From a virus (Duplodnaviria; Heunggongvirae; Uroviricota; Caudoviricetes), in the IMG/VR virus record IMGVR_UViG_3300023184_000031, positions 106,256 to 170,255 of that record: 64,000 nucleotides of DNA; one strand, given 5' to 3'. Below the pieces are notes generated by a model, which searched no databases, was not told the origin of the DNA, and saw only the letters and a list, made by a program, of their open reading frames with translations. Shown in pieces: positions 14,822 through 37,411 of the stretch. Made by a program: the position numbers and the translations under genes. Within the stretch, counting starts at the first letter, position 1; every line of letters begins with the position of its first letter.

Positions 14822-14826
14822 GTTAT

Positions 14827-16137: not shown

Positions 16138-16138
16138 T

Positions 16139-16771: not shown

Positions 16772-16777
16772 TAATTT

Positions 16778-17434
16778 ATGAAAATTAGTTATGGATTGAC
16801 AGCTTGGATTGAACACCAAGAGTTAGATAGGTTACTAACCTTCTTAAAACCTAGAATAGAGGATGAAGATGAGATTATAATTGTTTATGATCAAAATAGA
16901 GCTACTCCCGAAGTAATGGCCATTATGGAAAATTTTAAAAGAGATAATTATAGATATTATCCATTTAATTTCCAACAAGATTGGTTAGCCAACAAAAATT
17001 ATTTAGGAAGCATGTGTACAGGAGATTATATATTCCAAATAGATGCAGATGAATTACCAAATGAATTTTTGCTACAAAATATAAAAATTCTATTAGAAAA
17101 CAATCCCGCAGATGTGTTTATTATTCCTAGAATTAATCTTGTTGAAGATCTCACCCCAGAACATATCCAACAGTGGGGATGGAGAGTAAATGAAAAAGGA
17201 TGGGTTAATTTTCCCGATCCTCAAAAACGCTTATATCGTAATGATCCTTCCATTCAATGGCGTGATCCTGAAGGTCAACCTCAAGTACATGGAATGGTGA
17301 CAGGATATAAAACATATGCTGAATTACCTTATGAAGAAGAATGGTCACTATATCATATGAAACATATTACTAAACAAGAATATCAAAATAGAGTATATGA
17401 TATTGTATTAAAAGGAGGAAAAAGAAATGACTAA
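16778..17434 (+). CDS. Putative GT-A fold glycosyltransferase.
   Basis: 'IIIVYDQN' and DxD-like 'QIDADE'. Assignment is weak. Confidence 0.35.
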   Translation: MKISYGLTAWIEHQELDRLLTFLKPRIEDEDEIIIVYDQNRATPEVMAIMENFKRDNYRYYPFNFQQDWLANKNYLGSMCTGDYIFQIDADELPNEFLLQNIKILLENNPADVFIIPRINLVEDLTPEHIQQWGWRVNEKGWVNFPDPQKRLYRNDPSIQWRDPEGQPQVHGMVTGYKTYAELPYEEEWSLYHMKHITKQEYQNRVYDIVLKGGKRND

Positions 17435-18377
17435 AACAGCTTTTATAACAGGAATATCTGGACAAGATGGATCTTTATTGGCTGAGTTTCTTTTAGGTAA
17501 AGGATATAAAGTTTATGGGTTGATGAGAGAAAATTCATCAAAGGATAATTTAGAAGATATTATTAATAATAAAAATCTTTATATTATATATGGTGATTCT
17601 TTAAATAATGAATTAATACGTTATTTACTAGAAACATATCAATTTGATGAAATATATAATTTAGCTTCTCAAAGTAATATTAGATTAAGTTATGATAATC
17701 CTTTAATTACATTTAATGTAACATTAATAGGAACACTTATACTATTAGAAAATATCAAAAAATATTCTCTTAAATCAAAAATATTTCAAGCCGGTTCATC
17801 AGCTATGTTTGGAAATTCAATTGATAAAGATGGATTTCAAAGAGAAACATCCCCATTCAAACCAATCAGTCCATATGCTTCCTCTAAATTATTTGCTTTT
17901 AATGTTAGCAATAATTATAGAGAAAATAATGGATTATACGTGGTTAATGGGATATTATACAATCATGAATCTTTTAAATCAAAAACATTACTTGGTGTTA
18001 CGAATAATATAATTAAACATATTACTAATATTAAAAAAGGTATTATATCTGAATATTATGTACCTAATTTTAAAGTTTATTTAGATATAGGCAATGCTGA
18101 AGATTATATAGAAGCAATGTGGCTAACTCTACAACAAGCAAAACCGGATGATTATATTATATCTACCGGTATATTAAATAGCATAGAACATATATGTCAA
18201 TATACTTGTTCTAAACTTAATTTAGATTATAAGCAATGTATCAAAACTGAAAGTAATTCAATAGAGTTACCTAAATTAAAAGGAGATTCATCCAAATTAA
18301 AATCAATAGGATGGAATCCAAAATATACATTTGAAAATACAATGGATGAAATTATTAACTTTTATATTACCTTATGA
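17427..18377 (+). CDS. gmd: GDP-mannose 4,6-dehydratase.
   Basis: 'AFITGISGQDGSLLAEFLLGKGYKVYGLMR'. 'SPYASSKLFAFNVSNNYRENNGLYVVNGILYNHES'. Confidence 0.85.
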   Translation: MTKTAFITGISGQDGSLLAEFLLGKGYKVYGLMRENSSKDNLEDIINNKNLYIIYGDSLNNELIRYLLETYQFDEIYNLASQSNIRLSYDNPLITFNVTLIGTLILLENIKKYSLKSKIFQAGSSAMFGNSIDKDGFQRETSPFKPISPYASSKLFAFNVSNNYRENNGLYVVNGILYNHESFKSKTLLGVTNNIIKHITNIKKGIISEYYVPNFKVYLDIGNAEDYIEAMWLTLQQAKPDDYIISTGILNSIEHICQYTCSKLNLDYKQCIKTESNSIELPKLKGDSSKLKSIGWNPKYTFENTMDEIINFYITL

Positions 18378-19273
18378 AAATATTAGTTACAGGAGGAAAG
18401 GGTTTAGTTGGTTCTGCCATAAATGCAGATATTAAAATAGGAAGAGAGTTTGACTTAACTTCTCAGATAGAAACTAATATGGCGTTTGAATTACACAAAC
18501 CAACACATGTTATTCATTGTGCTGGGAAAGTAGGTGGAGTTGGTAGTAATATGAAATATAAGGGAGAATTTTTTTATGATAACATAATGATTAATACTAA
18601 TGTTATCGAATCTTGTAGAAAACATAACATTGAGAAATTATTGGCCTTCTTATCTACATGTATTTTTCCAGATAATGTTGAATATCCATTAAATGAAAAA
18701 AAAATTCATATAGGCCCTCCTCATACTTCTAATGACGCTTATGCATATGCAAAACGTATGTCAGACATACAAATAAGAGCATATAAAGAACAATACGGAC
18801 TAAATTACACCTCAGTAATACCAACTAATATATATGGAATTAATGATAATTTTTCATTAGAAAATGGGCATGTCATTCCAATGTTAATGCATAAATTATA
18901 TTTAGCCCAAAAAAATAACACAGATTTTATTGTATGGGGTAGCGGAAAACCATTAAGGGAATTTATATATTCTAAAGATATTGCAAAATTATCTGAATGG
19001 GCAATTGAGAACTATAATGAGATAGAACCTATTATCTTTACTAACTCACAAGAAATTAGTATAATGAATTTAGTTGATTTATTAGTTAAAGAGTTTAACT
19101 TTAAGGGTAAAGTCGTATTTGACTCAACAAAACCTGATGGTCAATTTAGAAAACCTTCGGATAATAGTAAACTAAAATCATATTTACCTGATTTTCAATT
19201 TACATCGATTGAAATAGGTATTAAAGAAACTGTAAAATGGTTTATTGAAAATTATGAAAATATAAGAAAATAA
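18374..19273 (+). CDS. GDP-4-keto-6-deoxymannose 3,5-epimerase/4-reductase (Fcl/ColC-like SDR).
   Basis: 'KILVTGGKGLVGSAI'. 'YAYAKRM'. 'PTNIYGINDNFSLENGHVIPMLMHK' resembles Fcl 'NLYGPHDNF..SHVIPAL'. Confidence 0.75.
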   Translation: MKILVTGGKGLVGSAINADIKIGREFDLTSQIETNMAFELHKPTHVIHCAGKVGGVGSNMKYKGEFFYDNIMINTNVIESCRKHNIEKLLAFLSTCIFPDNVEYPLNEKKIHIGPPHTSNDAYAYAKRMSDIQIRAYKEQYGLNYTSVIPTNIYGINDNFSLENGHVIPMLMHKLYLAQKNNTDFIVWGSGKPLREFIYSKDIAKLSEWAIENYNEIEPIIFTNSQEISIMNLVDLLVKEFNFKGKVVFDSTKPDGQFRKPSDNSKLKSYLPDFQFTSIEIGIKETVKWFIENYENIRK

Positions 19274-19275
19274 AT

Positions 19276-20088
19276 ATGAAATTATTTATAAGCCATATTA
19301 ACAAAGATCTTTTAGAAAAAAAATTAAAATTTATAAAACATATAGATTTTTCTTTATTTGTAGATGCAACCCCTCAATCTTTAGATGATTTATCTTCTAT
19401 TAATATATTAATACTTCAAGAACCAAATGAATATTTTGGTTTACATGATTGGGCTATAAAAAATAAAGATTTATTTTCTTTTATATTAACATGGAATGAT
19501 AAAGTAATTAATAATTGTGAAAATGCTATCTTTTTACCTTTTGGCCATACCTGGTTTAAACCAGAACAATATAAAAAAAACCATCAAAAACAGTTTCAGT
19601 TATCTCATTTATGTGGTAAATTATTAAAAACCTATGGTCATTCCTTAAGACATGAATTGTTAGCTAGACAAAATGAAATAAAAATACCCCTTAAATTTTT
19701 TGATGTTTATGGTGATAGATATAATATTGAAGAGGCTAGATTAGGAAAAGAATTTATTTTTAGCGATTCAATGTTTGGAGTAGCTATTGAAAATACTTCC
19801 CATAATGGTTATTTCACAGAAAAAATACTAGATTGTTTTTTATTGAAAACAATTCCCGTATATTGGGGATGTTCATCTATATCAAATTTCTTTAGGCAAG
19901 ATGGAATTATTACATTTAATAATATTGATGATTTTATTGTTAAAGTTAACCAATTAGATGAAATCTATTATAATGATCGTCTAAAGATTATTGAAGAAAA
20001 CTATCAATTAGCTCTCCAATATGTTGATTATGAACAAAACATAATAAATAAAATAACAGAAATATTTAAATTAAATAATTTAATATAA
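19276..20088 (+). CDS. GT10-like alpha-1,3-fucosyltransferase family protein.
   Basis: 'FGVAIENTSHNGYFTEKILDCFLLKTIPVYWG' matches the GT10 motif (F..AFENS...Y.TEK...A...G.VPVV). Confidence 0.6.
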   Translation: MKLFISHINKDLLEKKLKFIKHIDFSLFVDATPQSLDDLSSINILILQEPNEYFGLHDWAIKNKDLFSFILTWNDKVINNCENAIFLPFGHTWFKPEQYKKNHQKQFQLSHLCGKLLKTYGHSLRHELLARQNEIKIPLKFFDVYGDRYNIEEARLGKEFIFSDSMFGVAIENTSHNGYFTEKILDCFLLKTIPVYWGCSSISNFFRQDGIITFNNIDDFIVKVNQLDEIYYNDRLKIIEENYQLALQYVDYEQNIINKITEIFKLNNLI

Positions 20089-20091
20089 TAC

Positions 20092-21405
20092 ATGCAAGAA
20101 ATATTAAAATTAGTGGATGAATACATCCAGAAAAAGCACTCAGAAAAAACATGGGAAGCTGGTAAAGATTGGGTTCAATACGCTGGTCCCTATTTTGATT
20201 CTCAAGAATACATAGCCGCTGTTAAAACCTTATTAGGTGAATGGTTAGTATTAGGAGCTGAAGCAATTAAGTTTGAAAATAAATTTCCTAAGTTATTTGG
20301 TAAAAAATATGGACTATTAACTAATAGTGGTTCAAGTGCTAATTTATTGATGATGTTAGCAATGACATCAAAACGAGGATATAATTTTCCTAAAGGTACT
20401 AAGGTAATAACACCAATAGCCGGATTTCCAACCACAATTAATCCAATACTTCAATTAGGATTCACACCAGTATTTGTTGATATTGAGCTAGAAACACTTA
20501 ATCTAGATTTAGATCAAGTAGAACAAGCATGTATTGATAATCCTGATGCTAAAATTATTACATTTGCTCATGTGTTAGGTAATCCACCTAATATGAATCG
20601 ACTAATGGAAATGGTTGAAAAATATAAATTAATTCTATTAGAAGATTGTTGTGATGCCTTAGGATCTTCATTTGAAGGTAAACCATTAGGATCATTTGGG
20701 GAAATGGCTAGCTGCTCATTTTACCCAGCACATCATATTACAATGGGAGAAGGTGGATTTGTAGCTATGAATAATGTAGATACAGAACGTATTGTTCGTA
20801 GTTTTAGAGAATGGGGCCGTGGTTGTTATTGCGTTGGTAAACAAAATCTACTAGAAAATGGTAGCTGTGGATGTCGTTTCAATAACTGGCTACCAGCATT
20901 ACCAAACGATATATTTGATCACAAATATGTTTATGAAGAAATTGGTTATAATTTAAAACCAATTGAATTACAAGCATCAATGGGTTTAGTTCAAATGACT
21001 AAATTAGAAGAAATAGGAATTAAACGTAGAGAGAATTATAAAAATTTATTTGCTGCATTTAGTAAATACAAACAATATTTTCATTTACATGAATCACAAC
21101 CAGGGGCAGATGTTGATTGGTTTGCTTTTCCTATAACAGTAAAAGATGGAGCACCATTTAAACGCTCTGATATCTGTCAATTTTTAGAAGCAAACAAAAT
21201 ACAAACTCGCCCTTATTTTGCAGGTAATATTATGCTCCAACCAGCATATACACATTTGATGGATTCTAAAGAAGTAATTGAAAAATATCCTGTAGCTAGA
21301 AAAGTAACTACTGATACCTTCTTTTTAGGAACATCACCTGTAATCAATAAAGAAAAAACAGATTATATAGAAACAATATTAGATAAATTTATTAATACTT
21401 TATGA
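20092..21405 (+). CDS. DegT/DnrJ/EryC1-family PLP/PMP enzyme, 3-dehydratase type (ColD/E1-like) with Cys-rich insert.
   Basis: 'LLTNSGSSANLLMM'. The active-site region 'CSFYPAHHITMGEGGF' has His-His where aminotransferases have Lys. Insert 'GCYCVGK..GSCGCRF'. Confidence 0.75.
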   Translation: MQEILKLVDEYIQKKHSEKTWEAGKDWVQYAGPYFDSQEYIAAVKTLLGEWLVLGAEAIKFENKFPKLFGKKYGLLTNSGSSANLLMMLAMTSKRGYNFPKGTKVITPIAGFPTTINPILQLGFTPVFVDIELETLNLDLDQVEQACIDNPDAKIITFAHVLGNPPNMNRLMEMVEKYKLILLEDCCDALGSSFEGKPLGSFGEMASCSFYPAHHITMGEGGFVAMNNVDTERIVRSFREWGRGCYCVGKQNLLENGSCGCRFNNWLPALPNDIFDHKYVYEEIGYNLKPIELQASMGLVQMTKLEEIGIKRRENYKNLFAAFSKYKQYFHLHESQPGADVDWFAFPITVKDGAPFKRSDICQFLEANKIQTRPYFAGNIMLQPAYTHLMDSKEVIEKYPVARKVTTDTFFLGTSPVINKEKTDYIETILDKFINTL

Positions 21406-22349
21406 AAGTAGTATATATAACGGGATGTTTAGGTTTTATAGGTTCTTACATCACTAGAAGATGTTTAGAAAAAGGATGGTATGTTAAAGGGGTAGATAAA
21501 ATGACATATGTCGCTAATAAAACATTATTAGAAGAATTTAATCAATACGAAAATTTTTCATTTGTTCATTGTGATATAAATGAGTTAGAATTTTTACATG
21601 AATGCGATTATATTATTAATACAGCTGCTGAGACCCATGTTGGTAATTCAATAGCAGGTAGTGGGGAATTTGTAGACTCAAATATTACTGGTGTTCATTC
21701 CTTATTAGAATTAATAAGAAATTATAGGCAAGAAACCTCTAAAACACCAATATTATTACACTTTAGTACAGATGAAGTATATGGAGATATTGAAGAAGGA
21801 GCACACACCGAAACAGATTTACTAAAACCCAGCAATCCCTATTCAGCAACAAAAGCAGCAGCAGATATGTTAGTTTTAGCGTGGGGAAGAACTTACAACT
21901 TACCTTATGTTATAGTTAGACCAACAAATAACTATGGTATAGGTCAATATGTTGAAAAACTAATTCCTAAAACATGTAAATATCTTAAATTAGGAAGAAA
22001 AATACCCTTACATAATGGTGGAACTCCTATTAGAAATTGGTTACATGCTGCTGATACTGCTGAGGCCGTAATAACAATTATTGAAAAGGGAATTAAAAAT
22101 GAAATTTACAATATTGCTGGGGGATTTGAACAGTCAAATCATGATACTGTAAAGAAAATAATTAAAGAATATTGTGGAGATGATAATATAGAGTCGTATA
22201 TTGATTTAACATATTCTAGAGTAGGACAAGATGTTCGTTATGCTTTAGATGATTCTAAATTAAGATCATTAGGATGGGAACCAAAGAAAAACTTTGACGT
22301 TGAATTATTAAACATAGTAAAATATTATAAAAATAAATTTATATGGTAA
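21402..22349 (+). CDS. NDP-hexose 4,6-dehydratase (RmlB-like extended SDR).
   Basis: 'VYITGCLGFIGSYI'. 'HFSTDEVYGD'. 'YSATKAAADMLVLAWGRTYNLPYVIVRPTNNYG'. Confidence 0.8.
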   Translation: MKVVYITGCLGFIGSYITRRCLEKGWYVKGVDKMTYVANKTLLEEFNQYENFSFVHCDINELEFLHECDYIINTAAETHVGNSIAGSGEFVDSNITGVHSLLELIRNYRQETSKTPILLHFSTDEVYGDIEEGAHTETDLLKPSNPYSATKAAADMLVLAWGRTYNLPYVIVRPTNNYGIGQYVEKLIPKTCKYLKLGRKIPLHNGGTPIRNWLHAADTAEAVITIIEKGIKNEIYNIAGGFEQSNHDTVKKIIKEYCGDDNIESYIDLTYSRVGQDVRYALDDSKLRSLGWEPKKNFDVELLNIVKYYKNKFIW

Positions 22350-22891
22350 AAAAAGCACTTATTATTACTTGGGAAAAATTTCAAGATCACGAATTAATTT
22401 ATCCTTATTATAGTTTAAAAGAAGCAGGGTATGAAGTAACATTAATGGCCAATAAAATAGGAAAAATATGGGGTAGTTTAGGTACTCATATGTCTTGTGA
22501 TATTGAAACATCATTATTTGAAGATGAAAATAAAAGAAAATCATATTTGAATAATTTTGAAATACTATTAATTCCAGGGGGTGTTAAAGCACTTGAAAAA
22601 TTAAGACAAGAAAAAGGTGTACTTAAGTTTGTTCAAGAATGGAATGCCGCTAACAAAACAATATTTTCAGTATGTAATGGAGCTCAATTACTTATATCCG
22701 CTAAAATATTAAAAGGAAGAACACTTTCAGGATATTATAGCATTGATGTAGATATTGAAAACGCAGGTGCTACTTATAGTCGTGGTCCTGTAGTAGTGGA
22801 TGATAATATTATTTCTTGTCCACACTACGACTTTATGGGTGATTGGATGAGAATAGCATATCAAGTACATAATGAAAGAAATAAAAAATAA
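22343..22891 (+). CDS. DJ-1/PfpI family protein.
   Basis: 'LLIPGG'. 'IFSVCNGAQLL' (nucleophile-elbow Cys). 'IISCPHYD'. Confidence 0.7.
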   Translation: MVKKALIITWEKFQDHELIYPYYSLKEAGYEVTLMANKIGKIWGSLGTHMSCDIETSLFEDENKRKSYLNNFEILLIPGGVKALEKLRQEKGVLKFVQEWNAANKTIFSVCNGAQLLISAKILKGRTLSGYYSIDVDIENAGATYSRGPVVVDDNIISCPHYDFMGDWMRIAYQVHNERNKK

Positions 22892-23559
22892 TGAGTTACG
22901 AAACTAACATTGTAAAAAAACCATGGGGTTATGAGTATCTAGCTTACAAGAATGAAGATGTAGGTCTATGGTTTCTTTACATCGCTCCTGGTCAAAGTAC
23001 ATCAATGCATTGTCACCCTAAAAAAACAACTGGGTTAGTATTATTAGATGGGGAAGCAGAAATATCATTTTTAGCTGATAAAAGAACAATAAAGTCTTTA
23101 GATAAAGTAATGATTAGAAGAGGGTTATTTCACTCTACAAAGGCTATATCAGGTAAAGGAGCTTTTATATTTGAAATTGAAACACCTGTAGATAAACAGG
23201 ATTTAGTTAGATTAAATGATCAATATGGCCGTGCTTCCAAACCTTACGAAGATAATACATTTGAAGAAACAAAAAGTCAAAATTGTTTATGGATTACAGA
23301 CGAAAACAAAATATATGATTTTGCAAATTGTACTCTTCAAGTAGAAACTATAGACGATATTAATGTGATCAATAATAAAAAAGATAATGATTTGATAATG
23401 TTTCTTAAAGGAGGTATGGTACGTAATATAGATAATATTTCTCATTGCGTTACCGTCCCCGGAGATGTTGGGTTTGCATATATTATAAAACAAGTATCTA
23501 AACAATTAGATGGAGTACTTCCAGAAACATTAATAATGACAATAATTAAAAATGGCTAA
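22891..23559 (+). CDS. Cupin-fold protein; possible sugar ketoisomerase/epimerase.
   Basis: 'APGQSTSMHCHPKKTTGLVLLDGEAEI' cupin motif 1 with H-x-H. Confidence 0.45.
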   Translation: MSYETNIVKKPWGYEYLAYKNEDVGLWFLYIAPGQSTSMHCHPKKTTGLVLLDGEAEISFLADKRTIKSLDKVMIRRGLFHSTKAISGKGAFIFEIETPVDKQDLVRLNDQYGRASKPYEDNTFEETKSQNCLWITDENKIYDFANCTLQVETIDDINVINNKKDNDLIMFLKGGMVRNIDNISHCVTVPGDVGFAYIIKQVSKQLDGVLPETLIMTIIKNG

Positions 23560-23938
23560 TTTTTACCCTCCAGGATTTGAAAATCAATTAACAGTAGTTG
23601 CTATTGATTTTGATGGTGTGTTACATAATGCTAATAAAGGTTGGGGTGATGGTACATGTTACGGAGATCCATTACCTGGATCAATAGATGCTATTAAAGA
23701 GTTATCTAAAAAATATAAAATTATTATATTCACCGCTAAAGCAAAGTCTGATCGTCCGTTAGTAAATGGTAAAACAGGAACAAAATTAGTACAAGAGTGG
23801 TTTGAAAGGCATAATATTTTAGAGTATATTGATGATATTACAAGTGAAAAACCAAGAGCTGAATTATATATTGATGATAATGGTTATCGTTTTGAAAATT
23901 GGAAAGATACATTATCATTTATAGAAAAAAACATATGA
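23552..23938 (+). CDS. Small HAD-superfamily phosphatase.
   Basis: Motif I 'VVAIDFDGVLH'. 'IIIFTAKAKSD'. C-terminal 'YIDDNG'. Confidence 0.6.
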   Translation: MANFYPPGFENQLTVVAIDFDGVLHNANKGWGDGTCYGDPLPGSIDAIKELSKKYKIIIFTAKAKSDRPLVNGKTGTKLVQEWFERHNILEYIDDITSEKPRAELYIDDNGYRFENWKDTLSFIEKNI

Positions 23939-25701
23939 TAAAAGTTTCAGATTATATATTTGATTTTTTAAAATCTAAAGAAATTGACACTATATTTTCA
24001 GTATCAGGTGGAGCAGCTGCTCATTTACTTAATTCTGTAGTTGAGAAGAAATTTAAATATATTTGCAATTATCACGAACAAGCTTGTGCTATGGCCGCTG
24101 AAGGATATGCTCGTATAGCTAATAAACCTGCTTGTGTTTTAGTTACTAATGGACCTGGGTCTACTAATACTATTACAGGTATAGTAGGGGCTTATCAAGA
24201 TTCAATTCCCATGATTATTATATCAGGTCAAGTACCTGTAAATCAATCATTGGGTAGTTTAAAAGATATTAAGTTAAGACAACTAGGGGTACAAGAATGT
24301 AATATTATTGATATGGTTAAAAATATTACTAAATACGCTGTTCAAGTAACAGATCCTAAAACTATACCTTATCATATTGCTATGGCTTATAATGAAGCTA
24401 CAACAAATAGAATGGGTCCTGTTTGGTTAGATATTCCTCTCGATGTACAAAACGCAATGATAGAGCCAAATGAATTTATAATAGATAAAAGTTTTAATAC
24501 CACTGGTTATAATATTAATGAAATAATTAATCTTATATTCCATTCCAAAAAACCACTTATCATAACAGGAAATGGCATTCATTTATCACAGACTGAAAAT
24601 TTATTTACCCAGTTAAAAAATAAATTAAAAATACCAGTAATATCAACTTGGACTTCTAAAGACTTAATGGCACAAAATGATCCATTATTTGTAGGTAATT
24701 TTGGATTATTAGGAGAGAGAGCAGGTAATTTTGCTGTACAAAATGCTGATTTATTATTAATATTAGGTAGTAGGTTATCTATTCCAAATGTTGGATATCA
24801 ATCACATTTATTTTCACCTAAATCAATTAAAATAATGGTTGATATAGATAAAAATGAATTAAAAAAACCAACAATTAACATTGATTATCCTATAAACGAA
24901 GATTTAAATAATTTTCTTACAGATATTATATCAACACTAAGTAATAAAAAGATTCCTAATTGGAAAGAATGGATAGAAAAAACTCAATTATGGAAAATAA
25001 AATATCCTGTATTTCAACCTAAATATAAAGTAAATACTGATAAGATAAATTCATTTTATTTTATGGAGATATTATCTAGTAAATTAACAGATAATAATAT
25101 TGTAATAACAGATATGGGTACAAGCTATACTTGTACAATGCAGTCTTTACAAATGAATGGAAAAAATAGATTATTTACATCTAGTGCTTGTTGTTCAATG
25201 GGGTTTGGTTTACCTGGGGCTATTGGAGCTTATTTTGGAAAACCTAATAAAGATATTATATTGATTGCTGGAGATGGAGGCTTACAAATGAATATCCAGG
25301 AATTACAAACAATAATTCATAATAAAATACCTCTTAAAATATTTGTACTTAATAATAATGGTTATTTAGCTATTTCATTAATGCAAGATAATTTATTTAA
25401 AAGTAATTATATAGGTTCAAATAATGAAAGTGGAGTTAGTTCACCTAATTTTACTAAATTAGCAGAAGTATATGGATTTAAGACATTTAAATTTAATAAT
25501 AATAGTGAATTAGAAAGTAAAATAGATACTGTTTTAAATGAAAAAGGACCTGTTTTATGTGAAATAATGATGACTGAAAACCAATTATTAATTCCTCGTG
25601 TTCAATCTTCTAAAGATGAAAATGGGAAAATTATATCTAATTCACTAGAAAATATGTTTCCTTACCTTAGTGAAGAAGAAATGAAAGAAATAATGATATG
25701 A
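23935..25701 (+). CDS. Thiamine-diphosphate enzyme, acetolactate-synthase-like (YerE-like sugar-branching candidate).
   Basis: 'GPGSTNTITGIVGAYQDSIPMIIISGQV'. ThDP-binding 'IAGDGGLQMNIQELQT...VLNNNGY'. Start set at ATG 23935 (ATGA overlap with the upstream stop) within ORF 23899..25701. Confidence 0.8.
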   Translation: MIKVSDYIFDFLKSKEIDTIFSVSGGAAAHLLNSVVEKKFKYICNYHEQACAMAAEGYARIANKPACVLVTNGPGSTNTITGIVGAYQDSIPMIIISGQVPVNQSLGSLKDIKLRQLGVQECNIIDMVKNITKYAVQVTDPKTIPYHIAMAYNEATTNRMGPVWLDIPLDVQNAMIEPNEFIIDKSFNTTGYNINEIINLIFHSKKPLIITGNGIHLSQTENLFTQLKNKLKIPVISTWTSKDLMAQNDPLFVGNFGLLGERAGNFAVQNADLLLILGSRLSIPNVGYQSHLFSPKSIKIMVDIDKNELKKPTINIDYPINEDLNNFLTDIISTLSNKKIPNWKEWIEKTQLWKIKYPVFQPKYKVNTDKINSFYFMEILSSKLTDNNIVITDMGTSYTCTMQSLQMNGKNRLFTSSACCSMGFGLPGAIGAYFGKPNKDIILIAGDGGLQMNIQELQTIIHNKIPLKIFVLNNNGYLAISLMQDNLFKSNYIGSNNESGVSSPNFTKLAEVYGFKTFKFNNNSELESKIDTVLNEKGPVLCEIMMTENQLLIPRVQSSKDENGKIISNSLENMFPYLSEEEMKEIMI

Positions 25702-26483
25702 ACAAAATATTAATTACTGGGGCTAATGGATATGTAGGTAAAGCACTACATAATGCTTTAAAAGATAAATATAATGCAATTGCTATTACCAGAAAAGAGG
25801 TAGATTTAACTAATTCTGAAGAGGTTAATTCTTTTTTCTCAAAAATGGGAGGTTTTGATGTTATAATAAATTGTGCTGTTAAAGGAGGAAGTAGATTACA
25901 ACAAGACGAATGGAATATATTAGATGATAATCTAAAAATATATTACAATTTATTAGCAAATAAATGCTATTTTCAAAAATTTATACATTTTGGCTCAGGG
26001 GCTGAATTATTCACAAAAGATAAACCATATGGATTCAGTAAAGATGTAATTAGAAAATCAATACTTAATAAAAATTATTTCTATAACCTCAGAATATTTG
26101 GGGTATTTGATGAAAATGAACTAGATACTAGATTTATTAAAGCTAATATAAAACGTTATTTAAATAACGAACCAATAATCATTCATCAAAATAAACAGAT
26201 GAATTTTATTTATATGAAAGATTTAGTTACTTTAGTAGAATATTATATAATAAATAATAATTCACCTAAAGAAATAAATTGTAATTATAATAAAACTATT
26301 ACTTTAGAAGAAATAGCAAATATGATAAATAACCTAGACACATATAAAGTTAATATAGAAATAATAAATAAAAAATCCGCGACTTCCTACTCAGCAGATA
26401 ATTTTACTGATTTAGGAATCAAATTTATAGGTTTAGAGCAAGGTATTAAAGAAGTATATAATAAATTAAAAAATGAATATTAA
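25698..26483 (+). CDS. NAD(P)-dependent SDR sugar reductase/epimerase (RmlD-like).
   Basis: 'ILITGANGYVGKAL' Rossmann motif. 261 aa. Confidence 0.6.
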   Translation: MNKILITGANGYVGKALHNALKDKYNAIAITRKEVDLTNSEEVNSFFSKMGGFDVIINCAVKGGSRLQQDEWNILDDNLKIYYNLLANKCYFQKFIHFGSGAELFTKDKPYGFSKDVIRKSILNKNYFYNLRIFGVFDENELDTRFIKANIKRYLNNEPIIIHQNKQMNFIYMKDLVTLVEYYIINNNSPKEINCNYNKTITLEEIANMINNLDTYKVNIEIINKKSATSYSADNFTDLGIKFIGLEQGIKEVYNKLKNEY

Positions 26484-27411
26484 AATTTTAACTCACTTAA
26501 TGCCTTGGGAAATAGATTATGCATTATTGTCTTTTTCTCAACTTAAAAAAGTTCAAAAACACATTCCGGAAGAAGTAAATATTGAGTTTGATAATGTTTT
26601 AAATTTATCTAGTAATATTATAGATTGGGATAAAAGTAAATTTCCTAAAGAATATTTTATAGATAAGTATAAAGATATTTGTAAAGGATTTAGTACAATT
26701 AAAATCAATTCTAAAATAATAGATTCTAATATATTTTATGGACATTTAGACCTTCAAAGAGAGTGTAAATCTCCTCACATAGATTATTACATTCCTTTTT
26801 GCCCAGATATGTATTTTGGAGAATATTTAATTCCATATATAATTGAATCTATTAAAAATATCTCTAATAAACATTTCATCATAACTCCTCAAGTAACAAA
26901 AAGATGGGATCCTAGTTGGGATATTTTAGTTAATGAAAACTTTTTAAATATTTCATATAGTCATTGTTTTGATTTAAATCACTATGAGGTAGATATTATA
27001 AATAATCCCTCAACCCCAGAATTAATTCCACTTAATGGATTTAAATATGCTGGTTGGTTTGATTGTTATAGTAAAGAAATTTGGGAAACTTTCTGTCCCG
27101 TATGGGATGAATGGAGTGGCTATGGATCCTGGGATACTTATTCTATGTATACTTTATCTTTATTAAAACAAAAAGGATATGATATTCAACAATATATTTT
27201 AAAAAATCAAGTAATATCAGAATACTGGAATGGTAATGAATCTCAACAAAATTGGGATATAGATACTTATAAAGAAAAAAATAGTGAAGGATTATGTGGA
27301 TACTATAAAAAACAATTGTATATTAATAAAAATAAAGAAGGAAAATTAGATTATACTAGACTTCAAGAATATGCAATTACTCAATTTAATAAAATAATAA
27401 ATAATGGATAA
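26473..27411 (+). CDS. Hypothetical protein, Trp/Tyr-rich, inside the sugar island.
   Basis: ORF with ATGA-type overlaps to both neighbours. Confidence 0.45.
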   Translation: MNIKILTHLMPWEIDYALLSFSQLKKVQKHIPEEVNIEFDNVLNLSSNIIDWDKSKFPKEYFIDKYKDICKGFSTIKINSKIIDSNIFYGHLDLQRECKSPHIDYYIPFCPDMYFGEYLIPYIIESIKNISNKHFIITPQVTKRWDPSWDILVNENFLNISYSHCFDLNHYEVDIINNPSTPELIPLNGFKYAGWFDCYSKEIWETFCPVWDEWSGYGSWDTYSMYTLSLLKQKGYDIQQYILKNQVISEYWNGNESQQNWDIDTYKEKNSEGLCGYYKKQLYINKNKEGKLDYTRLQEYAITQFNKIINNG

Positions 27412-28255
27412 AATAAATGTATTCGGAGGAACAGGGTTTATAGGAAGTAAATTTTGCCAATTACACCCAGAACATATTATATTAAATGATAGAAATGATT
27501 ATATACCTAAAACAAATAATATATTATACTTTATAAGTACTATTGATAACTATAATGTTCATAAAGATTTACATATTGATGTAGATACTAATTTAACAGT
27601 ATTATTAAATGTATTAGAAAATATTAAAAATAATCCAACTAAAGATATCACATTTAATTTTATTAGTTCTTGGTTTGTTTATGGACAAAACGATAAAATT
27701 CCTTTTAAAGAAAATGATCTAGGATGTAACCCAACAGGATTTTATTCTATAACAAAAAGATGTGCTGAGCAATTAATTATTAGTTTTTGTGAAACATATG
27801 ATATAAAATATAGGATATTTAGATTGGCAAATGTATTAGGGGAAGGAGATAAAAAAATATCAAAAAAGAAAAATGCACTTCAATTTTTAATTCAAGAAAT
27901 AGCTAATAATAGGAATGTTGAACTATATTATGGAGGAAATGTTTTAAGAGATTATATATATGTTGATGATGTGTGTAATGCCGTGTTTCATTGTATAAAT
28001 AAAGCCCCAATAAACGAAATAATAAACATTGGAAGTGGCAAACCATATCTATTTTTGAATATTATAAAAGATGCTATAGTTAAAGCTAATTCTAAATCTA
28101 AAATTATAGAAATTCATCCAACCCATTTCCACAATATTGTTCAAGTAAAAAATTCATATTTAGATACTACTAAGTTAACTAATTATGGATATAAATGTGA
28201 ATATGATATTGATGAAATAGTTCAAAAACTTGTAGATCATTATAAAAATCAATGA
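27404..28255 (+). CDS. NAD-dependent epimerase/dehydratase family SDR.
   Basis: 'INVFGGTGFIGSKF'. 'YSITKRCAEQL' (YxxxK). Confidence 0.65.
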   Translation: MDKINVFGGTGFIGSKFCQLHPEHIILNDRNDYIPKTNNILYFISTIDNYNVHKDLHIDVDTNLTVLLNVLENIKNNPTKDITFNFISSWFVYGQNDKIPFKENDLGCNPTGFYSITKRCAEQLIISFCETYDIKYRIFRLANVLGEGDKKISKKKNALQFLIQEIANNRNVELYYGGNVLRDYIYVDDVCNAVFHCINKAPINEIINIGSGKPYLFLNIIKDAIVKANSKSKIIEIHPTHFHNIVQVKNSYLDTTKLTNYGYKCEYDIDEIVQKLVDHYKNQ

Positions 28256-28950
28256 ATAAATATCTAATAATATCACCAGTAGGAGATGAATCTCTTCACC
28301 CAGAATGGGTTAAAGAAAAAACTAATTTTGATTTAGTTTTAATTTATTATGGAGATAATGAATCTATTGCTGAGTCAAATATAAAATATACCCCTTATGT
28401 ATATGCTGCTAAAGGAGAAAAATATCATTTAATCAAATCATTTATAGAATCTAATATTGAGTTTATTTCTAATTATACCTACATTTGGATCCCAGATAAT
28501 GATGTTCTAATATCAACCAAAAATATTAACAGATTATTTGAGATAGCAACTCAATATCAACTCTCCATTTGCCAACCATCAATGGATGGGTATGTTTCTC
28601 ATGAAATAACAAAACCAGTCCCTAACAATATATTACGTTATACTAATTTTGTTGAAGTATTAGCACCTTTATTTGATTTAAAATCACTATTAAAAGTGTA
28701 TAAAACATTTGATTTAAATTATTCAAGTTGGGGATATGATTACTTGTGGCCTCATCTTTTAGATTATCCTAAAGATAAAATAGCAATTATAGATGGTATA
28801 ATAATGACCCACACAAAACCAGTAGGACAAAGTTATTCTCGCTTTCCTGTAGCTCCTTGGGAAGAAATGAATTGGTTATTATATTCATATAATATTAAAA
28901 AAGAAGAAATAAATTATTCACAAATAATAAAAAATGAATATATATTTTAA
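28252..28950 (+). CDS. Hypothetical protein; possible glycosyltransferase-like.
   Basis: ORF within the island. No diagnostic motif recognised. Confidence 0.4.
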   Translation: MNKYLIISPVGDESLHPEWVKEKTNFDLVLIYYGDNESIAESNIKYTPYVYAAKGEKYHLIKSFIESNIEFISNYTYIWIPDNDVLISTKNINRLFEIATQYQLSICQPSMDGYVSHEITKPVPNNILRYTNFVEVLAPLFDLKSLLKVYKTFDLNYSSWGYDYLWPHLLDYPKDKIAIIDGIIMTHTKPVGQSYSRFPVAPWEEMNWLLYSYNIKKEEINYSQIIKNEYIF

Positions 28951-29692
28951 AGAAACACAATTCGGTCATTTTTGTCTTATTGAGAAAGATTTAATTAGTA
29001 ATTGTATTAGTAATTATGGATATTGGGAGCAGCATCTACATTATTTTTATTCTCAATTTATTAAACCAAATGATGTTGTTATAGATGGAGGAGCAAATTT
29101 AGGATTTCATAGCATTCAGTTTGCTAAATTAGCTAATCAAGGAAAAGTATATTGTTTTGAACCTCAACCATTAATATTCAATGTATTATCTACTAATATA
29201 TTAATTAATGGAGCTACAGACATAATAAAACAATTTAGATTAGGATTAAGTGATAAAGAAGAGCAATTGAAAATGTCCCCACTTAAAGATCAAATATTCT
29301 CAGAAGATTGCATTAATTATGGAGGAAGAGCTTTAACAAATTCAGAAGAGGGTGAAGAAGAAGTTCAATTAACTAATATAGATAGTTTAAATTTATCTAA
29401 ATTAGATTTAATAAAATTAGATGTACAGGGATTTGAATTAGAAACTATTAAAGGTGGAGAAAAAACAATAAAAAATAACTATCCTATATTCTTTTTAGAA
29501 AATTATATTGATCAAGAAAAAGATCAAGAAGTAATTAAACTACTACAAGAATGGGGATATATTAATTATAGACTAGATATAGGAAATAAAGAAGATTGCA
29601 TACTAGTATACCCAGATAAACATAAATCAGAAATAAAATTTATAGAGACACAAACTAAAATAAAATATAATAAATTAAAGGATGAATATTAA
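28934..29692 (+). CDS. FkbM-family methyltransferase.
   Basis: 'VVIDGGANLGFHSIQFAKLANQGKVYCFEPQPLIFNVL'. Confidence 0.75.
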   Translation: MNIYFKETQFGHFCLIEKDLISNCISNYGYWEQHLHYFYSQFIKPNDVVIDGGANLGFHSIQFAKLANQGKVYCFEPQPLIFNVLSTNILINGATDIIKQFRLGLSDKEEQLKMSPLKDQIFSEDCINYGGRALTNSEEGEEEVQLTNIDSLNLSKLDLIKLDVQGFELETIKGGEKTIKNNYPIFFLENYIDQEKDQEVIKLLQEWGYINYRLDIGNKEDCILVYPDKHKSEIKFIETQTKIKYNKLKDEY

Positions 29693-31037
29693 ATTAATTA
29701 TATTTGATTTAGATGGAGTTTTAGTTGAAGCTAAACGTATTCATTATGATGCTTTAAATAAAGCATTGGGAGAAAAGTATGCTATAGAATGGAATGAGCA
29801 TTTATCAATCTATGATGGTTTAAAAACAAACCAGAAACTTGAAATATTAACAGAGAGAAAAGGATTATCTATTAATCTGTATAAAGAGGTATGGGATAAT
29901 AAACAAATGTATACTTTACAAGAACTAAGAAATCTTAAAGTTAATTCTGAATTAGTAACAACTATGACTATGTTAGTTAATGAAGGATATAAATTAGCTG
30001 TATGTTCCAATAGTATTAGAAAAACTGTGTTAACAGTACTATCTAAATTAGGTATTATTGAATTCTTTGATTTAATATTATCAAATGAAGATGTTAAAAA
30101 TAGTAAACCACATCCTGAAATGTATTGGAAGACAATGTCAACAATGGGATGCCTACCAGAAGAAGTATTAATTGTTGAGGATTCACCATATGGTTTATTA
30201 GCAGCAAGTAGAAGTAAAGCTCATGTAATGAGAGTTGGTTCTCCTAAAGAGGTTACATATATTAATATCCATAAACATTTAAATAAAGAAAGAATGAATG
30301 TTACTCCTAAATGGAAAGATGAAAAATTAAATGTATTAATTCCAATGGCTGGAGCTGGTTCTAGATTCGAACAAGCAGGTTATACATTTCCAAAACCACT
30401 TATTGATGTTAGAAATAAACCAATGATTCAGGTTGTTATTGAGAATCTTAATATTGATGCCAATTATATATATCTTGTTCAGAAAAAACATAGAGAAAAA
30501 TATAATTTAGATACTTTACTTAATCTACTTACTCCTGGTTGTAAAATAGTAGAAGTAGACGGTATAACTGAAGGAGCGGCTTGTACTGCATTGTTAGCTA
30601 AAGAATTTATTGGTAATGACAGTCCATTATTCTTTGCTAATTCTGATCAATTTGTAGAGTGGGATTCAAATGACTTTATGTACAAGATGCAAGAAACAAA
30701 TGCTGATGGAGGTATAGTTACATTTAAAGCAACTCATCCTAAATGGTCATTTGCTAAAATTGATGAAAATGGATTAGTAACAGAGGTAGCAGAAAAAAAT
30801 CCAATATCTGATAATGCAACAGTAGGATATTATTTTTGGAAACATGGGTCTGATTTTATTAAATATGCAGAACAGATGATTGAAAAGAACATTCGTGTTA
30901 ATAATGAATTCTATGTTTGCCCTGTATTTAATCAAGCAATTACCGATAATAAAGAAATTAGAACATTTAATGTTGAAGGAATGTGGGGATTAGGCACACC
31001 AGAAGACTTACACTATTATTTAGAAAATTACAAATGA
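29682..31037 (+). CDS. Bifunctional HAD-family hydrolase/phosphomutase fused to an NDP-sugar/phospho-alcohol nucleotidyltransferase.
   Basis: N-terminal 'IIFDLDGVLVEA', 'KPHPEMY' and 'VEDSPYGLLAA' (HAD-IA). C-terminal 'LIPMAGAGSRFEQAGYTFPKPLIDVRNKPMIQ' (G-x-G-[ST]-R nucleotidyltransferase signature). Confidence 0.7.
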   Translation: MNIKLIIFDLDGVLVEAKRIHYDALNKALGEKYAIEWNEHLSIYDGLKTNQKLEILTERKGLSINLYKEVWDNKQMYTLQELRNLKVNSELVTTMTMLVNEGYKLAVCSNSIRKTVLTVLSKLGIIEFFDLILSNEDVKNSKPHPEMYWKTMSTMGCLPEEVLIVEDSPYGLLAASRSKAHVMRVGSPKEVTYINIHKHLNKERMNVTPKWKDEKLNVLIPMAGAGSRFEQAGYTFPKPLIDVRNKPMIQVVIENLNIDANYIYLVQKKHREKYNLDTLLNLLTPGCKIVEVDGITEGAACTALLAKEFIGNDSPLFFANSDQFVEWDSNDFMYKMQETNADGGIVTFKATHPKWSFAKIDENGLVTEVAEKNPISDNATVGYYFWKHGSDFIKYAEQMIEKNIRVNNEFYVCPVFNQAITDNKEIRTFNVEGMWGLGTPEDLHYYLENYK

Positions 31038-31480: not shown

Positions 31481-32669
31481 TGTTTTTATTACTAACAAAT
31501 CCTCTACTGGAGGACAGTGGGAGAGACTAGGAGTAACGTATGATAGAGGAAATTTATCTACTCCTAATAAACTAGATATATTAAAATATAGTTTAGCTAG
31601 CTATGCAGTAGCATACCCTTGGAAAAGAATAATATTAAATTTAGAGTTAGATCCTGATTATATCCCACCCAGTAGACAATCAGAATTAAAAGAATTTGCT
31701 TTTAAAATATTTAAAAATATTGAAATATTCTATTCAGAACGAAGAAATGTAACACAAGAAGATTGGATTAAAACTTACGACTTAATTAATGATGATGTTA
31801 TTTTTTATCAAGGTAATCATGATCATATTTTTATAGACAGTTCAACATCTTATCTAGAAGAATTAGTTAAATTAAGAGAAACATATGGAGAAAATTTAAC
31901 TATTTCAACATCTCATTTTCCTGAATGTGTTAGAACATCTAAAGGATGTTATATAGATTTATTTAAAGGAGAAACTCAACCCTCTTTATTCAACTCAGAT
32001 TATGAATTAAAAAATAATCATTTTTCTAGAACAACTCCTGTTTTTGATAGTTTAATTATTATAACTAAAGAAATTTATAAAAATTGGTTTTTAGAAGGAG
32101 ATTGGTCTCAAATTCAATTCCCCCCTGAGTTATTTACTTCAGGCAAATTAGAATTAGCTCGAACTGAAGGAACCGGAATAATAGGATTATCAGAAATAAA
32201 AAAGTTAATTAAAAGTCCAATAATTAAACAGATATTAATTTCTCCATATAAAGAAATATTTAGACATTTTGATGGATATTATCATCAATATATAACAAAT
32301 AATCAATGCCCTGCTCTTGATATACCTCCTGGCTTTTTTGAAAATAATATTAAAATCAGATATGGATATGAAAATTATATAGAGGGTTGGGTAAATATTA
32401 ACCCAAAAAATGAACATTACTATGCTTATGATAAATCAGGAACGGATTATAAATTTACTTTAAATGAAATTCCTTTATTTTGGAAAAGCAGAATATCTAA
32501 AATAGATTCAAATCCTAATATTGATGAAGAAGAAATGGTTCAATATAGACTAAAATCAATATTAGAAATGATATATACTCATCCTTATTACGAACCCTAT
32601 ATAGATAAAGAATTAGAAAATAAAATATTAAACAAATATTTAGAAAATTATCCTGGATATGAATATTAA
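31464..32669 (+). CDS. Hypothetical protein within the island.
   Basis: 401 aa ORF. Confidence 0.45.
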   Translation: MVLLFNVFITNKSSTGGQWERLGVTYDRGNLSTPNKLDILKYSLASYAVAYPWKRIILNLELDPDYIPPSRQSELKEFAFKIFKNIEIFYSERRNVTQEDWIKTYDLINDDVIFYQGNHDHIFIDSSTSYLEELVKLRETYGENLTISTSHFPECVRTSKGCYIDLFKGETQPSLFNSDYELKNNHFSRTTPVFDSLIIITKEIYKNWFLEGDWSQIQFPPELFTSGKLELARTEGTGIIGLSEIKKLIKSPIIKQILISPYKEIFRHFDGYYHQYITNNQCPALDIPPGFFENNIKIRYGYENYIEGWVNINPKNEHYYAYDKSGTDYKFTLNEIPLFWKSRISKIDSNPNIDEEEMVQYRLKSILEMIYTHPYYEPYIDKELENKILNKYLENYPGYEY

Positions 32670-37079: not shown

Positions 37080-37084
37080 CTAAT

Positions 37085-37384: not shown

Positions 37385-37411
37385 CTTGTTTTCGAACCCT
37401 TTATATATTTA

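Follow-up and report, generated by a model that had tools for sequence, protein, structure and literature searches.

Here we report that a phage DNA stretch encodes what we judge, with a probability of roughly 0.7, to be a YerE-like ThDP carboligase within a self-contained cassette of exclusively soluble enzymes for the biosynthesis of a C-branched deoxysugar nucleotide. This reading builds on what was observed in this study, namely the domains and the clade of the enzyme and a gene order that is conserved. The window, that is, the whole stretch of 64,000 nucleotides analyzed, is of phage origin, as it encodes a T4-like DNA polymerase, a clamp loader, GroEL, and a prohead protease. No phage isolate has a DNA polymerase more than 34% identical to that of the window, and megablast searches with 20-kb pieces of the window returned no match among GenBank phages. 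The ThDP gene is part of a glycan island composed of the following features, the last line giving the gene that comes after it.

13361..17434 (+): two GT1-type glycosyltransferases, a Zn-ribbon protein, and a GT2 (PHROG 2170, Pfam)
17427..19273 (+): Gmd-like and Fcl-like pair (Pfam, NCBIfam)
19276..20088 (+): GT10 (fucosyltransferase-like) protein (Pfam PF00852)
20092..21405 (+): E1/RfbH-type PMP and [2Fe-2S] NDP-4-keto-6-deoxyhexose 3-dehydratase (NCBIfam NF011936)
21402..22349 (+): NDP-hexose 4,6-dehydratase, RmlB-like (TIGR01181, PDB 2hun)
22343..22891 (+): DJ-1/PfpI-family protein (Pfam PF01965; alignment to PDB PfpI/PH1704)
22891..23559 (+): two-domain protein with a PMI-like metal cupin in its N-terminal ~125 aa
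23552..23938 (+): small HAD-like protein with a DxDGV motif (sub-threshold HAD-family matches only)
23935..25701 (+): ThDP-dependent carboligase of the YerE-like/JanthE clade, 588 aa (Pfam, NCBIfam, PDB, NJ tree)
25698..26483 (+): short extended SDR, 261 aa (Pfam Epimerase and RmlD_sub_bind)
26473..27411 (+): conserved 312-aa protein following the SDR (no Pfam or NCBIfam match)
27404..28255 (+): second extended SDR of the epimerase/reductase type (Pfam Epimerase and GDP_Man_Dehyd)
28252..29692 (+): DUF707 protein and FkbM-family methyltransferase (Pfam, NCBIfam TIGR01444)
29682..31037 (+): fusion of a beta-phosphoglucomutase-like HAD and a sugar-1-phosphate nucleotidyltransferase (Pfam HAD_2 and NTP_transferase)
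32659..33870 (+): GT2 glycosyltransferase, the last gene of the island, followed by the prohead protease (Pfam)
33896-34435: head maturation protease (PHROG)

The sequence-only reading that preceded this analysis had described an acetolactate synthase (ALS)-like ThDP protein of 589 amino acids. Its motifs and domains were as described, but the count had included the stop codon, and the open reading frame, which starts with ATG, encodes 588 residues. A TTG at position 23899 is a possible, but unlikely, start of a longer form. TPP_enzyme_N, _M, and _C are all matched (Pfam, E 1e-28 to 1e-36), and the translation contains GPGSTNTITG...SIPMIIISGQV and GDGGLQMN...NNNGY, with an invariant catalytic Glu at E48 and a GDG-X24-NNN motif. 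The ATG overlaps the upstream stop codon and the stop codon overlaps the start of the downstream SDR gene, in both cases as ATGA, an arrangement expected if the ThDP gene and its neighbors form one operon.

As judged from its sequence, the window enzyme is not a biosynthetic branched-chain amino acid ALS (acetohydroxyacid synthase, AHAS). It shares with AHAS (IlvB/IlvG/IlvI) the three-domain fold, the catalytic Glu, the ThDP motif, and about 29-31% identity, but differs by an additional loop and by a tail at the C terminus. Against the NCBIfam model TIGR00118 it scored 371 bits versus a cutoff of 538, and it fell short of all other ALS equivalogs by more. The score against phrog_11199, which carries no annotated function, was no better than for the ALS models (363 bits). 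AHAS enzymes have a conserved Trp (in QMW) at the acceptor/herbicide site, and the motif RFDDR. The corresponding positions here are C400 and RLSIP, and the Trp was found in none of 149 ThDP family members in the alignment columns. The Arg of RFDDR, by contrast, was rejected as a clean marker between AHAS and YerE-like enzymes, as about half of the family retains it. No IlvN/IlvH-like small subunit, ACT-domain protein, or other ilv gene is present near the ThDP gene or in the island, and its immediate neighbors encode the HAD-like protein and an SDR rather than a regulatory subunit. Clear orthology to ALS together with a regulatory partner, the outcome that the sequence-only reading had set against a role in sugar biosynthesis, was thus not seen.

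The best match among solved structures, over the full length, was JanthE of Janthinobacterium sp. HH01 (PDB 8rph/8rpi/8rpj), a characterized YerE-like enzyme, with 360 bits for 8rph compared to 240 bits for the best AHAS. A neighbor-joining (NJ) tree, in which three of the four reference sequences came from outside the ThDP family, grouped the family with JanthE and apart from AHAS and 5ahk in all 50 bootstraps. A phylogeny against ALS and YerE was among the checks that the sequence-only reading had proposed. The structure 5ahk, which we take to be PpYerE, lay outside the JanthE/ThDP clade in this NJ tree. The window protein and JanthE have in common the C-terminal tail, the invariant and family-specific R115, and an RL(S/A)IP motif, and both lack the Trp of AHAS. 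They are only 32% identical, however, compared to 29-31% identity of the window protein to AHAS, and JanthE has CDG in place of the canonical GDG. By sequence, the enzyme is closer to characterized YerE-like enzymes, as represented by JanthE, than to AHAS, and its putative kinship to enzymes proven to act on sugars is drawn from JanthE and the gene context rather than from the sequences of YpYerE, ErwE, or MygE. JanthE binds FAD non-catalytically. In the window protein the middle domain PF00205 is intact (100 bits) and P284 and Y288 correspond to P293 and Y297 of JanthE, while JanthE Y268 is replaced by Leu. The window enzyme is a candidate for FAD binding as well.

The flanking 4,6-dehydratase, 3-dehydratase-type enzyme, and SDRs claimed in the sequence-only reading were all recovered with Pfam and NCBIfam. 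The E1-type protein scored 458 bits against NF011936 (cutoff 423) and retains equivalents of His220 and of the four Fe-S cysteines Cys193/251/253/261; it would yield a 3,6-dideoxy-4-keto acceptor. The 4,6-dehydratase scored 303 bits with the dTDP model TIGR01181 versus 70 bits with the CDP model TIGR02622, and 242 bits with PDB 2hun, and is predicted to be RmlB-like rather than of the CDP-glucose type. The SDR directly downstream of the ThDP gene is a YerF-like candidate for reducing the carbonyl of the branch, following the logic of YerF and ErwF (PMC9306805). The 312-aa protein encoded next is conserved in eight of the loci compared (L003, L005, L087, L092, L093, L095, L152, and L156), and in related phages a GT2 gene comes after it. 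The HAD/nucleotidyltransferase fusion, a likely entry point to the NDP-hexose as far as its domains indicate, is weakly RmlA-like, with both the bPGM family and rmlA_long matched below the NCBIfam cutoffs; the nucleotidyltransferase and the SDR alike stay below curated cutoffs. The window thus holds a 4,6-dehydratase, an E1, and a candidate branch reductase together. The Gmd/Fcl pair would constitute a separate GDP-6-deoxyhexose (fucose-type) branch within the same island.

The absence of a visible E3-type reductase, pointed out in the sequence-only reading, was confirmed: no Fer2 or FNR-type domain was found by Pfam in 40 open reading frames of the window. A search for plant-type Fe-S and FNR motifs likewise found none in the six window frames or in 159 cellular and IMG/VR loci, a weak negative, since these regular expressions are crude and stand in for a real E3 query. 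By this search, lack of an E3 is the rule across loci of the ThDP family and not a peculiarity of the phage. We rejected an explanation through a ColD-type enzyme, as the similarity to Yersinia pseudotuberculosis E1 (3bcx, 334 bits) is twice that to ColD (172 bits) and the Fe-S cysteines are kept. The E1-type PMP/[2Fe-2S] 3-dehydratase mechanism has been reviewed, and SpnQ is an E1-type enzyme that acts on a dTDP sugar without an E3, SpnQ-type systems relying instead on general ferredoxin or flavodoxin reductases (PMC8987622). The window resembles these systems, by description rather than by sequence, in combining an E1-like Fe-S 3-dehydratase and an RmlB-type dehydratase with no dedicated E3. 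It differs in that its E1-type protein is much nearer to Yersinia E1 (334 bits) than to 9wvy (171 bits), the one putative NDP-4-keto-6-deoxyglucose 3-dehydratase in the PDB.

The pathway to yersiniose A in Y. pseudotuberculosis comprises DdhA, DdhB, E1 with E3, YerE, and YerF. In gene types and pathway logic, rather than in comparison to the YpYerE sequence, the cassette is alike: a nucleotidyltransferase, a 4,6-dehydratase, an E1-type 3-dehydratase, and an ALS-like ThDP enzyme, then a reductase. To this extent the fit to yersiniose biosynthesis suggested earlier holds, but not in its canonical form, because the dehydratase is RmlB-like instead of CDP-type. The canonical CDP-3,6-dideoxyhexose pair of DdhB/RfbG and DdhA/RfbF was not found in the window according to NCBIfam scores. 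Further differences are the missing E3, the additional DJ-1, cupin, and HAD-like genes, and the location of the cassette in a phage, without membrane (Wzx/Wzy) components.

From this combination of genes we infer the following catalytic steps. The HAD/nucleotidyltransferase fusion would generate an NDP-hexose, which the RmlB-like enzyme would convert into an NDP-4-keto-6-deoxyhexose. The E1-type PMP/[2Fe-2S] enzyme would then remove the 3-OH; in the absence of an encoded E3, its electrons would presumably come from ferredoxin or flavodoxin systems of the host. The ThDP enzyme would decarboxylate a 2-oxo acid and attach the acyl anion equivalent so formed at C-4 of the keto-sugar, and the product would be a tertiary alcohol bearing an acyl branch. 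The carbonyl of the branch would be reduced by the translationally coupled SDR, and glycosyltransferases of the island would move the sugar onto an acceptor. The carrier nucleotide may not be CDP, as the dehydratase is RmlB-like. Pyruvate, the source of the two-carbon branch in yersiniose, is one candidate among the possible 2-oxo acids, and since the branch depends on the donor, its identity would follow that of the donor acid.

We compared 159 loci, comprising those of the best 80 cellular relatives of the ThDP protein, none from Yersinia, Pectobacterium, or Mycobacterium, and 79 viral loci from IMG/VR. Of these closest 80 cellular relatives, 55 had an E1 homologue no more than 10 kb from the ThDP homologue, and 19 had an SDR near it. 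Among the viral loci, 63 of 79 had an E1, 63 of 79 an RmlB-like dehydratase, and 67 of 79 an SDR. An RfbF-like cytidylyltransferase was present in 45/80 cellular loci versus 1/79 viral loci. In the phages of the window's clade, the E1, dehydratase, DJ-1, cupin, HAD-like, ThDP, and SDR genes are contiguous and co-conserved, a pattern that almost all of the clade's long loci show (L087-L102, L118). The YerE-like sugar-branching role put forward in the sequence-only reading gains support from the linkage to E1, 4,6-dehydratase, and SDR genes seen in bacteria as well as in viral contigs, besides the non-ALS character of the enzyme and its membership in the JanthE clade.

The DJ-1, cupin, and HAD-like genes, which the sequence-only reading had missed, are the tightest-linked partners of the ThDP enzyme. 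By alignment to PfpI/PH1704, the Cys-His dyad of the DJ-1/PfpI protein is altered to Cys-Asn, and its gene travels with those of the cupin and the ThDP clade of the window. The cupin contains HxH...H and DLVRLxDxYGR motifs, and a profile search against the PDB returned generic cupins only. We propose that it prepares the acceptor, or else supplies or tailors the donor. The gene of the small HAD-like protein, possibly a phosphatase, is conserved as the one immediately preceding the ThDP gene in 18/79 viral loci.

These partners also allow for another interpretation, namely that the YerE-like carboligase acts on an acceptor other than the E1 product, with cupin and DJ-1 defining a distinct pathway. 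The cupin would isomerize or epimerize another keto-sugar or a sugar phosphate, which would then be branched, and E1 and the dehydratase would serve a parallel sugar. The nearest bacterial relatives carry cupin and ThDP enzyme as one fusion protein. We consider such a pathway unlikely for the phage cassette, given that the genes from E1 through the SDR are contiguous and co-conserved in the phages of the clade, and that the Gmd/Fcl pair already covers another sugar, which would leave the reactive product of E1 without a consumer. The three closest cellular relatives (L007, L008, and L013) have both a cupin and DJ-1, yet there is no E1 up to 10 kb away, and L008 is embedded among different sugar genes; for these reasons this sub-clade may use another acceptor.

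YerE-like enzymes are promiscuous in vitro, and the publications on JanthE that we consulted state no physiological substrate or pathway. Both are compatible with a decarboxylase or carboligase whose substrate is a small metabolite other than a sugar, perhaps serving to form an acyloin or to remove a 2-oxo acid, and positioned in the island incidentally. This is very improbable, as the co-occurrence of E1, 4,6-dehydratase, and SDR in ~120 independent loci is far beyond incidental and the ThDP gene is translationally coupled to that of the SDR. A genuine AHAS that boosts valine, leucine, isoleucine, or pantothenate synthesis during infection is scarcely credible, even though ALS large subunits are the nearest NCBIfam and PHROG-level similarities, homologues are named acetolactate synthase by JGI and K01652 in automatic annotation, and viral auxiliary metabolic gene tables enter such genes as ALS, because the protein misses every ALS equivalog cutoff, lacks the Trp and RFDDR, has no small subunit or further ilv genes nearby, is separated from AHAS in all 50 bootstraps, and is encoded within a sugar cassette.

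The preferred reading of a sugar-branching cassette has consequences for viral gene catalogues. We found no paper on a phage-encoded YerE-like enzyme, and researchers studying such enzymes have themselves pointed to viruses as unexplored. The claim that a phage pathway for branched sugars would be new has to be qualified, as more than 500 IMG/VR stretches encode relatives of the ThDP protein. The gene is widespread in viral contigs, yet unrecognized. In a tblastn search of GenBank phage records no match exceeded 34% identity, and the matches were annotated as ilvB/ALS or not at all, many of them in records that resemble bacterial contigs, which makes these matches uninformative. K01652 (ilvB/G/I) genes in viral contigs have been counted as amino acid or pantothenate genes. 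Genes of this kind in viral catalogues are probably mislabelled as amino acid genes, and those located beside deoxysugar genes are more likely to encode glycan-branching enzymes. This would reassign a common viral auxiliary metabolic gene and point to the production by phages of rare C-branched deoxysugars, so far described in bacterial lipopolysaccharide (LPS) and antibiotics.

More divergent members of the ThDP family adjoin genes of 2-oxoacid-forming enzymes (PanB, NeuB, HMGL-like, and HpcH aldolase), in line with the published scheme of an aldolase, a ThDP enzyme, and a reductase for acyl-branched sugars (PMC9306805). ErwE, MygE, and MMAR_2332, likened here by description, are ThDP enzymes that similarly occur next to a 2-oxoacid-forming enzyme and together with a reductase, but the clade of the window has no recognizable aldolase and contains the DJ-1/cupin/HAD trio in its place. 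We tentatively entertain, at odds of about one in three, a conserved deoxysugar chassis (dehydratase, E1, and SDR) in which pairs of donor module and ThDP enzyme are swapped, the module being PanB, NeuB, an HMGL-aldolase, or here DJ-1/cupin/HAD, to produce hypervariable branched sugars on virions or another cytoplasmic target, and not on LPS. If so, the trio would represent an undescribed route to the donor or acceptor, hence a new sugar, and branched sugars would be built wholly by soluble enzymes. With hundreds of diverse YerE-like carboligases, each with a neighboring gene that hints at its donor acid, viral metagenomes offer a ready panel for the biocatalysis of chiral tertiary alcohols.

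The ThDP gene runs from an ATG at 23935 to a stop codon at 25699-25701 and encodes 588 amino acids; the sequence-only reading had the coordinates right, and its length of 589 includes the stop codon. With the alternative TTG start at 23899, the protein would be 12 residues longer. Pfam matches cover all three domains of a ThDP enzyme, N-terminal, central, and C-terminal (E 1e-28 to 1e-36), and the protein carries a catalytic Glu, E48 (HEQ), and the canonical ThDP motif GDG-X24-NNN. Both of its junctions are ATGA overlaps, shared at the start with the stop codon of the upstream gene and at the end with the start codon of the downstream SDR gene, so that the three genes are translationally coupled. 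The neighboring genes, which include the 3-dehydratase, 4,6-dehydratase, and SDR earlier recognized from sequence, fit a deoxysugar-branching pathway.

20092-21405, +, E1/RfbH-type 3-dehydratase (equivalog score 458, cutoff 423)
21402-22349, +, RmlB-kind 4,6-dehydratase (dTDP model 303 bits, CDP model 70; PDB 2hun 242 bits)
22343-22891, +, DJ-1/PfpI protein, PfpI-type Cys-His dyad changed to Cys-Asn
22891-23559, +, 222-aa cupin-bearing protein
23552-23938, +, HAD-like protein, 128 aa (sub-threshold matches only)
23935-25701, +, ThDP enzyme
25698-26483, +, short extended SDR, in the YerF/ErwF position
29682-31037, +, beta-phosphoglucomutase-like HAD domain fused to a sugar-1-phosphate nucleotidyltransferase
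Elsewhere in the island, +, five glycosyltransferases (two GT1-type, two GT2, one GT10-like)
Rest of the island, +, a Gmd/Fcl pair, an FkbM methyltransferase, a DUF707 protein, and several unknowns

Against Yersinia pseudotuberculosis E1, the product of 20092-21405 scores 334 bits, about twice its 172 bits against ColD, and it retains both the His that stands in for the aminotransferase Lys and the equivalents of Cys193, Cys251, Cys253, and Cys261. Enzymes with this combination of His and Fe-S Cys residues are by definition of the E1/SpnQ type and depend on an external reductant (PMC8987622). From the gene content and order observed in the window, we infer every step of a branched deoxysugar nucleotide pathway, to which we assign a probability of roughly 0.7. 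An NDP-hexose would be formed, 4,6-dehydrated, and then 3-deoxygenated in a PMP/[2Fe-2S]-dependent reaction with host electron carriers. The ThDP enzyme would decarboxylate a 2-oxo acid and attach the resulting acyl anion equivalent at C-4 of the keto-sugar, the coupled SDR would reduce the branch carbonyl, and soluble glycosyltransferases of the island would transfer the sugar to its target. No membrane segment is predicted in any of the island's 22 proteins, which points to a glycan made by soluble enzymes, and no flippase, polymerase, or initiating phosphoglycosyl transferase was found in the island. The glycan island (about 13.4-33.9 kb; 13361-33870) has a GC content of 0.23-0.30 versus 0.32-0.38 outside, is placed between the replication genes and the head protease, and has every gene on the plus strand.

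Directly upstream of the ThDP gene are three small genes overlooked in the sequence-only reading, encoding the DJ-1/PfpI, cupin-bearing, and HAD-like proteins. Archaeal PfpI/PH1704 gives the best alignment to the DJ-1/PfpI protein, in which Asn replaces the His beside the nucleophilic Cys (svCNGaq); in a homologue from locus L125 the pair is Cys-Ser. In the closest cellular relatives, Nitrospinaceae (51% identity) and Candidatus Scalindua (49%), the cupin is fused to the N terminus of the ThDP enzyme, giving ORFs of 862 aa (L007:9212-11800) and 858 aa (L008:9233-11809), respectively, each with a DJ-1 gene just upstream. Cupin-linked ThDP enzymes group together near JanthE in a neighbor-joining (NJ) tree. 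By position, the trio may be a donor or branch-tailoring module, or, in the manner of the CapF cupin, which is an epimerase, it may prepare the acceptor. The main rival to the proposed pathway keeps the same chemistry and lets the cupin and DJ-1 partners set another acceptor. No E1 lies within 10 kb of the L007 and L008 fusion ORFs, and the neighbors in L008, unlike the sugar genes of the window, are an HldE-like kinase/nucleotidyltransferase, a radical SAM-SPASM protein, a HAD protein, and an altronate dehydratase. We consider this other acceptor unlikely, and a role of the ThDP enzyme outside sugar metabolism altogether quite improbable.

Judged by its sequence, the ThDP enzyme is not a biosynthetic acetolactate synthase (ALS, or AHAS). 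Its top NCBIfam score, 371 bits for TIGR00118, falls short of the 538-bit cutoff, and the shortfall is larger still for all other ALS equivalogs. The best match among solved structures is full-length and to 8rph (360 bits), whereas the best true AHAS scores 240 bits; 8rph is JanthE of Janthinobacterium sp. HH01, a biochemically and structurally characterized "YerE-like" carboligase whose cofactors are ThDP and a non-catalytic FAD. Searched for among 1.8 billion representative proteins, homologues of about 600 aa make up a large family, the best 150 representatives all scoring 379-633 bits. A MAFFT/NJ tree was built from 153 sequences: the window protein, 148 homologues from fetched loci, and four references, namely JanthE, E. 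coli AHAS I, yeast AHAS, and 5ahk, which we take to be PpYerE (PDB reference sequences were transcribed from HMMER alignments). The family and JanthE were monophyletic against the other three references in 50/50 bootstraps, with JanthE nested within the family. With these four references, the phylogeny proposed in the sequence-only reading separates the JanthE clade from AHAS and 5ahk; assignment of the window enzyme to the YerE-like class rests on JanthE and gene context.

Raw identity discriminates poorly (32% to JanthE, 29-31% to AHAS), unlike specific alignment columns, which separate the family from AHAS well. The position of the AHAS QMW Trp is Cys400 in the window protein and is Trp in 0/149 family members, and AHAS RFDDR corresponds to RLSIP in the window protein and RLAIP in JanthE; both are conserved features of AHAS, where the Trp belongs to the acceptor and herbicide site. 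The family has an insertion of 8-12 residues followed by invariant R115 and G118, and the window protein and JanthE share a C-terminal tail of about 30 residues (S..DG...S.PLEDM.PFL) found in neither AHAS nor 5ahk. With scores below the ALS cutoffs, no AHAS Trp, a separate clade, and no regulatory small subunit or other ilv genes found near the ThDP gene, orthology to a branched-chain ALS with a regulatory partner, the outcome named in the sequence-only reading as refuting the sugar-branching proposal, was not observed, and a true AHAS role is scarcely credible.

The association of the ThDP gene with deoxysugar genes recurs widely. Among the 80 closest cellular loci (38-51% identity, very diverse phyla), an E1 homologue lies within 10 kb of the ThDP homologue in 55, though many are short contigs, and 45 have an RfbF-like glucose-1-phosphate cytidylyltransferase and are therefore canonical CDP-3,6-dideoxyhexose clusters. 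Relatives are encoded by at least 582 IMG/VR stretches (582 of the 600 matches listed); the best 79 loci contain E1 (63/79), RmlB-like dehydratase (63/79), and SDR (67/79). In the protein database, more than 120 clusters are 73-88% identical to the window protein; the contigs that encode them reach 197 kb. Three cassette-bearing IMG/VR contigs (L088, L103, L110) are labeled giant-virus MAG fragments ("GVMAG"); given the same phage-type gene order as in the window, the label of L088 may reflect mis-binning.

As had been noted from sequence, no E3-type reductase, the dedicated partner of E1, was detected in the window; nor was one in 159 cellular and IMG/VR viral loci, which were scanned by sequence motifs only, so its absence appears to be a general feature of these clusters. 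SpnQ provides a precedent, acting on a dTDP-sugar and drawing on general reductase pairs of the ferredoxin or flavodoxin kind (PMC8987622); the window likewise combines an E1-type enzyme and an RmlB-kind dehydratase without E3. Two related phages (L005:6621-7454, L003:5460-6290) have an additional gene of about 277 aa, which the window lacks, separating E1 from the 4,6-dehydratase. Pfam gives no match for it, and since neither Fe-S nor FNR motifs are seen in it, it is not an obvious E3 substitute.

Many related phage loci retain E1 at 60-70% identity, the dehydratase at 70-78%, and the SDR at about 50%, and in these the ThDP enzymes are only 37-44% identical to that of the window and the trio is absent. 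The ThDP gene is instead adjoined by PanB ketopantoate hydroxymethyltransferase (L116:9782-10720, L146:9798-10736), a NeuB-family enzyme (L131:6927-8000, L155:9776-10861), or an HMGL-like aldolase (L127:6973-8004), and cellular loci often have an HpcH/HpaI aldolase; all of these make 2-oxo acids. In our comparison, divergent ThDP homologues adjoin such genes, which suggests that a ThDP enzyme is exchanged together with its donor module. In erwiniose biosynthesis, the donor comes from an aldolase, a ThDP enzyme links this donor with the keto-sugar, and a reductase completes the sequence (PMC9306805); the related loci similarly pair a 2-oxo-acid-making gene with a ThDP gene. Separately, the 197-kb relative IMGVR_UViG_3300032291_002550 has two short genes between the 4,6-dehydratase and DJ-1 (L003:7228-8398), matching PF00676 (E1_dh, 209 aa) and PF02779 (Transket_pyr, 178 aa). 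By its domains, this pair is predicted to be a second ThDP enzyme of the cassette, split over two genes and recalling the alpha-ketoacid-dehydrogenase-type sugar-branching enzymes of antibiotic pathways.

We found no literature linking YerE-like enzymes to phages, in line with the earlier expectation that a phage-encoded branched-chain sugar pathway would be new, and a review by a group studying YerE-like enzymes names viruses as unexplored. Tables of viral AMGs list K01652 "acetolactate synthase" beside rfbG, gmd, and fcl, filed under amino-acid and pantothenate metabolism; such entries probably repeat this misannotation. Enzymes of this kind are already known. New are the phage setting, the RmlB-type chassis lacking E3, the cupin/DJ-1/HAD partners, and the apparent donor-module swapping.

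The window, from metagenomic contig NODE_84 of ENA ERZ3460575 (170,341 bp), is phage DNA, with a T4-like DNA polymerase, clamp loader, GroEL, exonuclease, and prohead protease. No close GenBank phage was found at the DNA level, and the DNA polymerase is at most 34% identical to that of any isolate. The GroEL-type chaperonin is full-length (8021-9655; phrog_5725, 497 bits), and there are two tRNA genes, tRNA-Gln(TTG) at 37009-37080 and tRNA-Glu(TTC) at 37312-37385. An 868-aa ORF at 112-2718 has six repeated stretches matching phrog_25468 (unknown function). The 474-aa product of 40102-41526 combines PD40 repeats with an OmpA domain, the 514-aa product of 45940-47484 combines Big_7/Ig domains with a papain-like C1 peptidase domain, and PKD and Band_7 proteins are encoded nearby; from the OmpA/PD40 architecture, our guess would be a Bacteroidota-like Gram-negative host.
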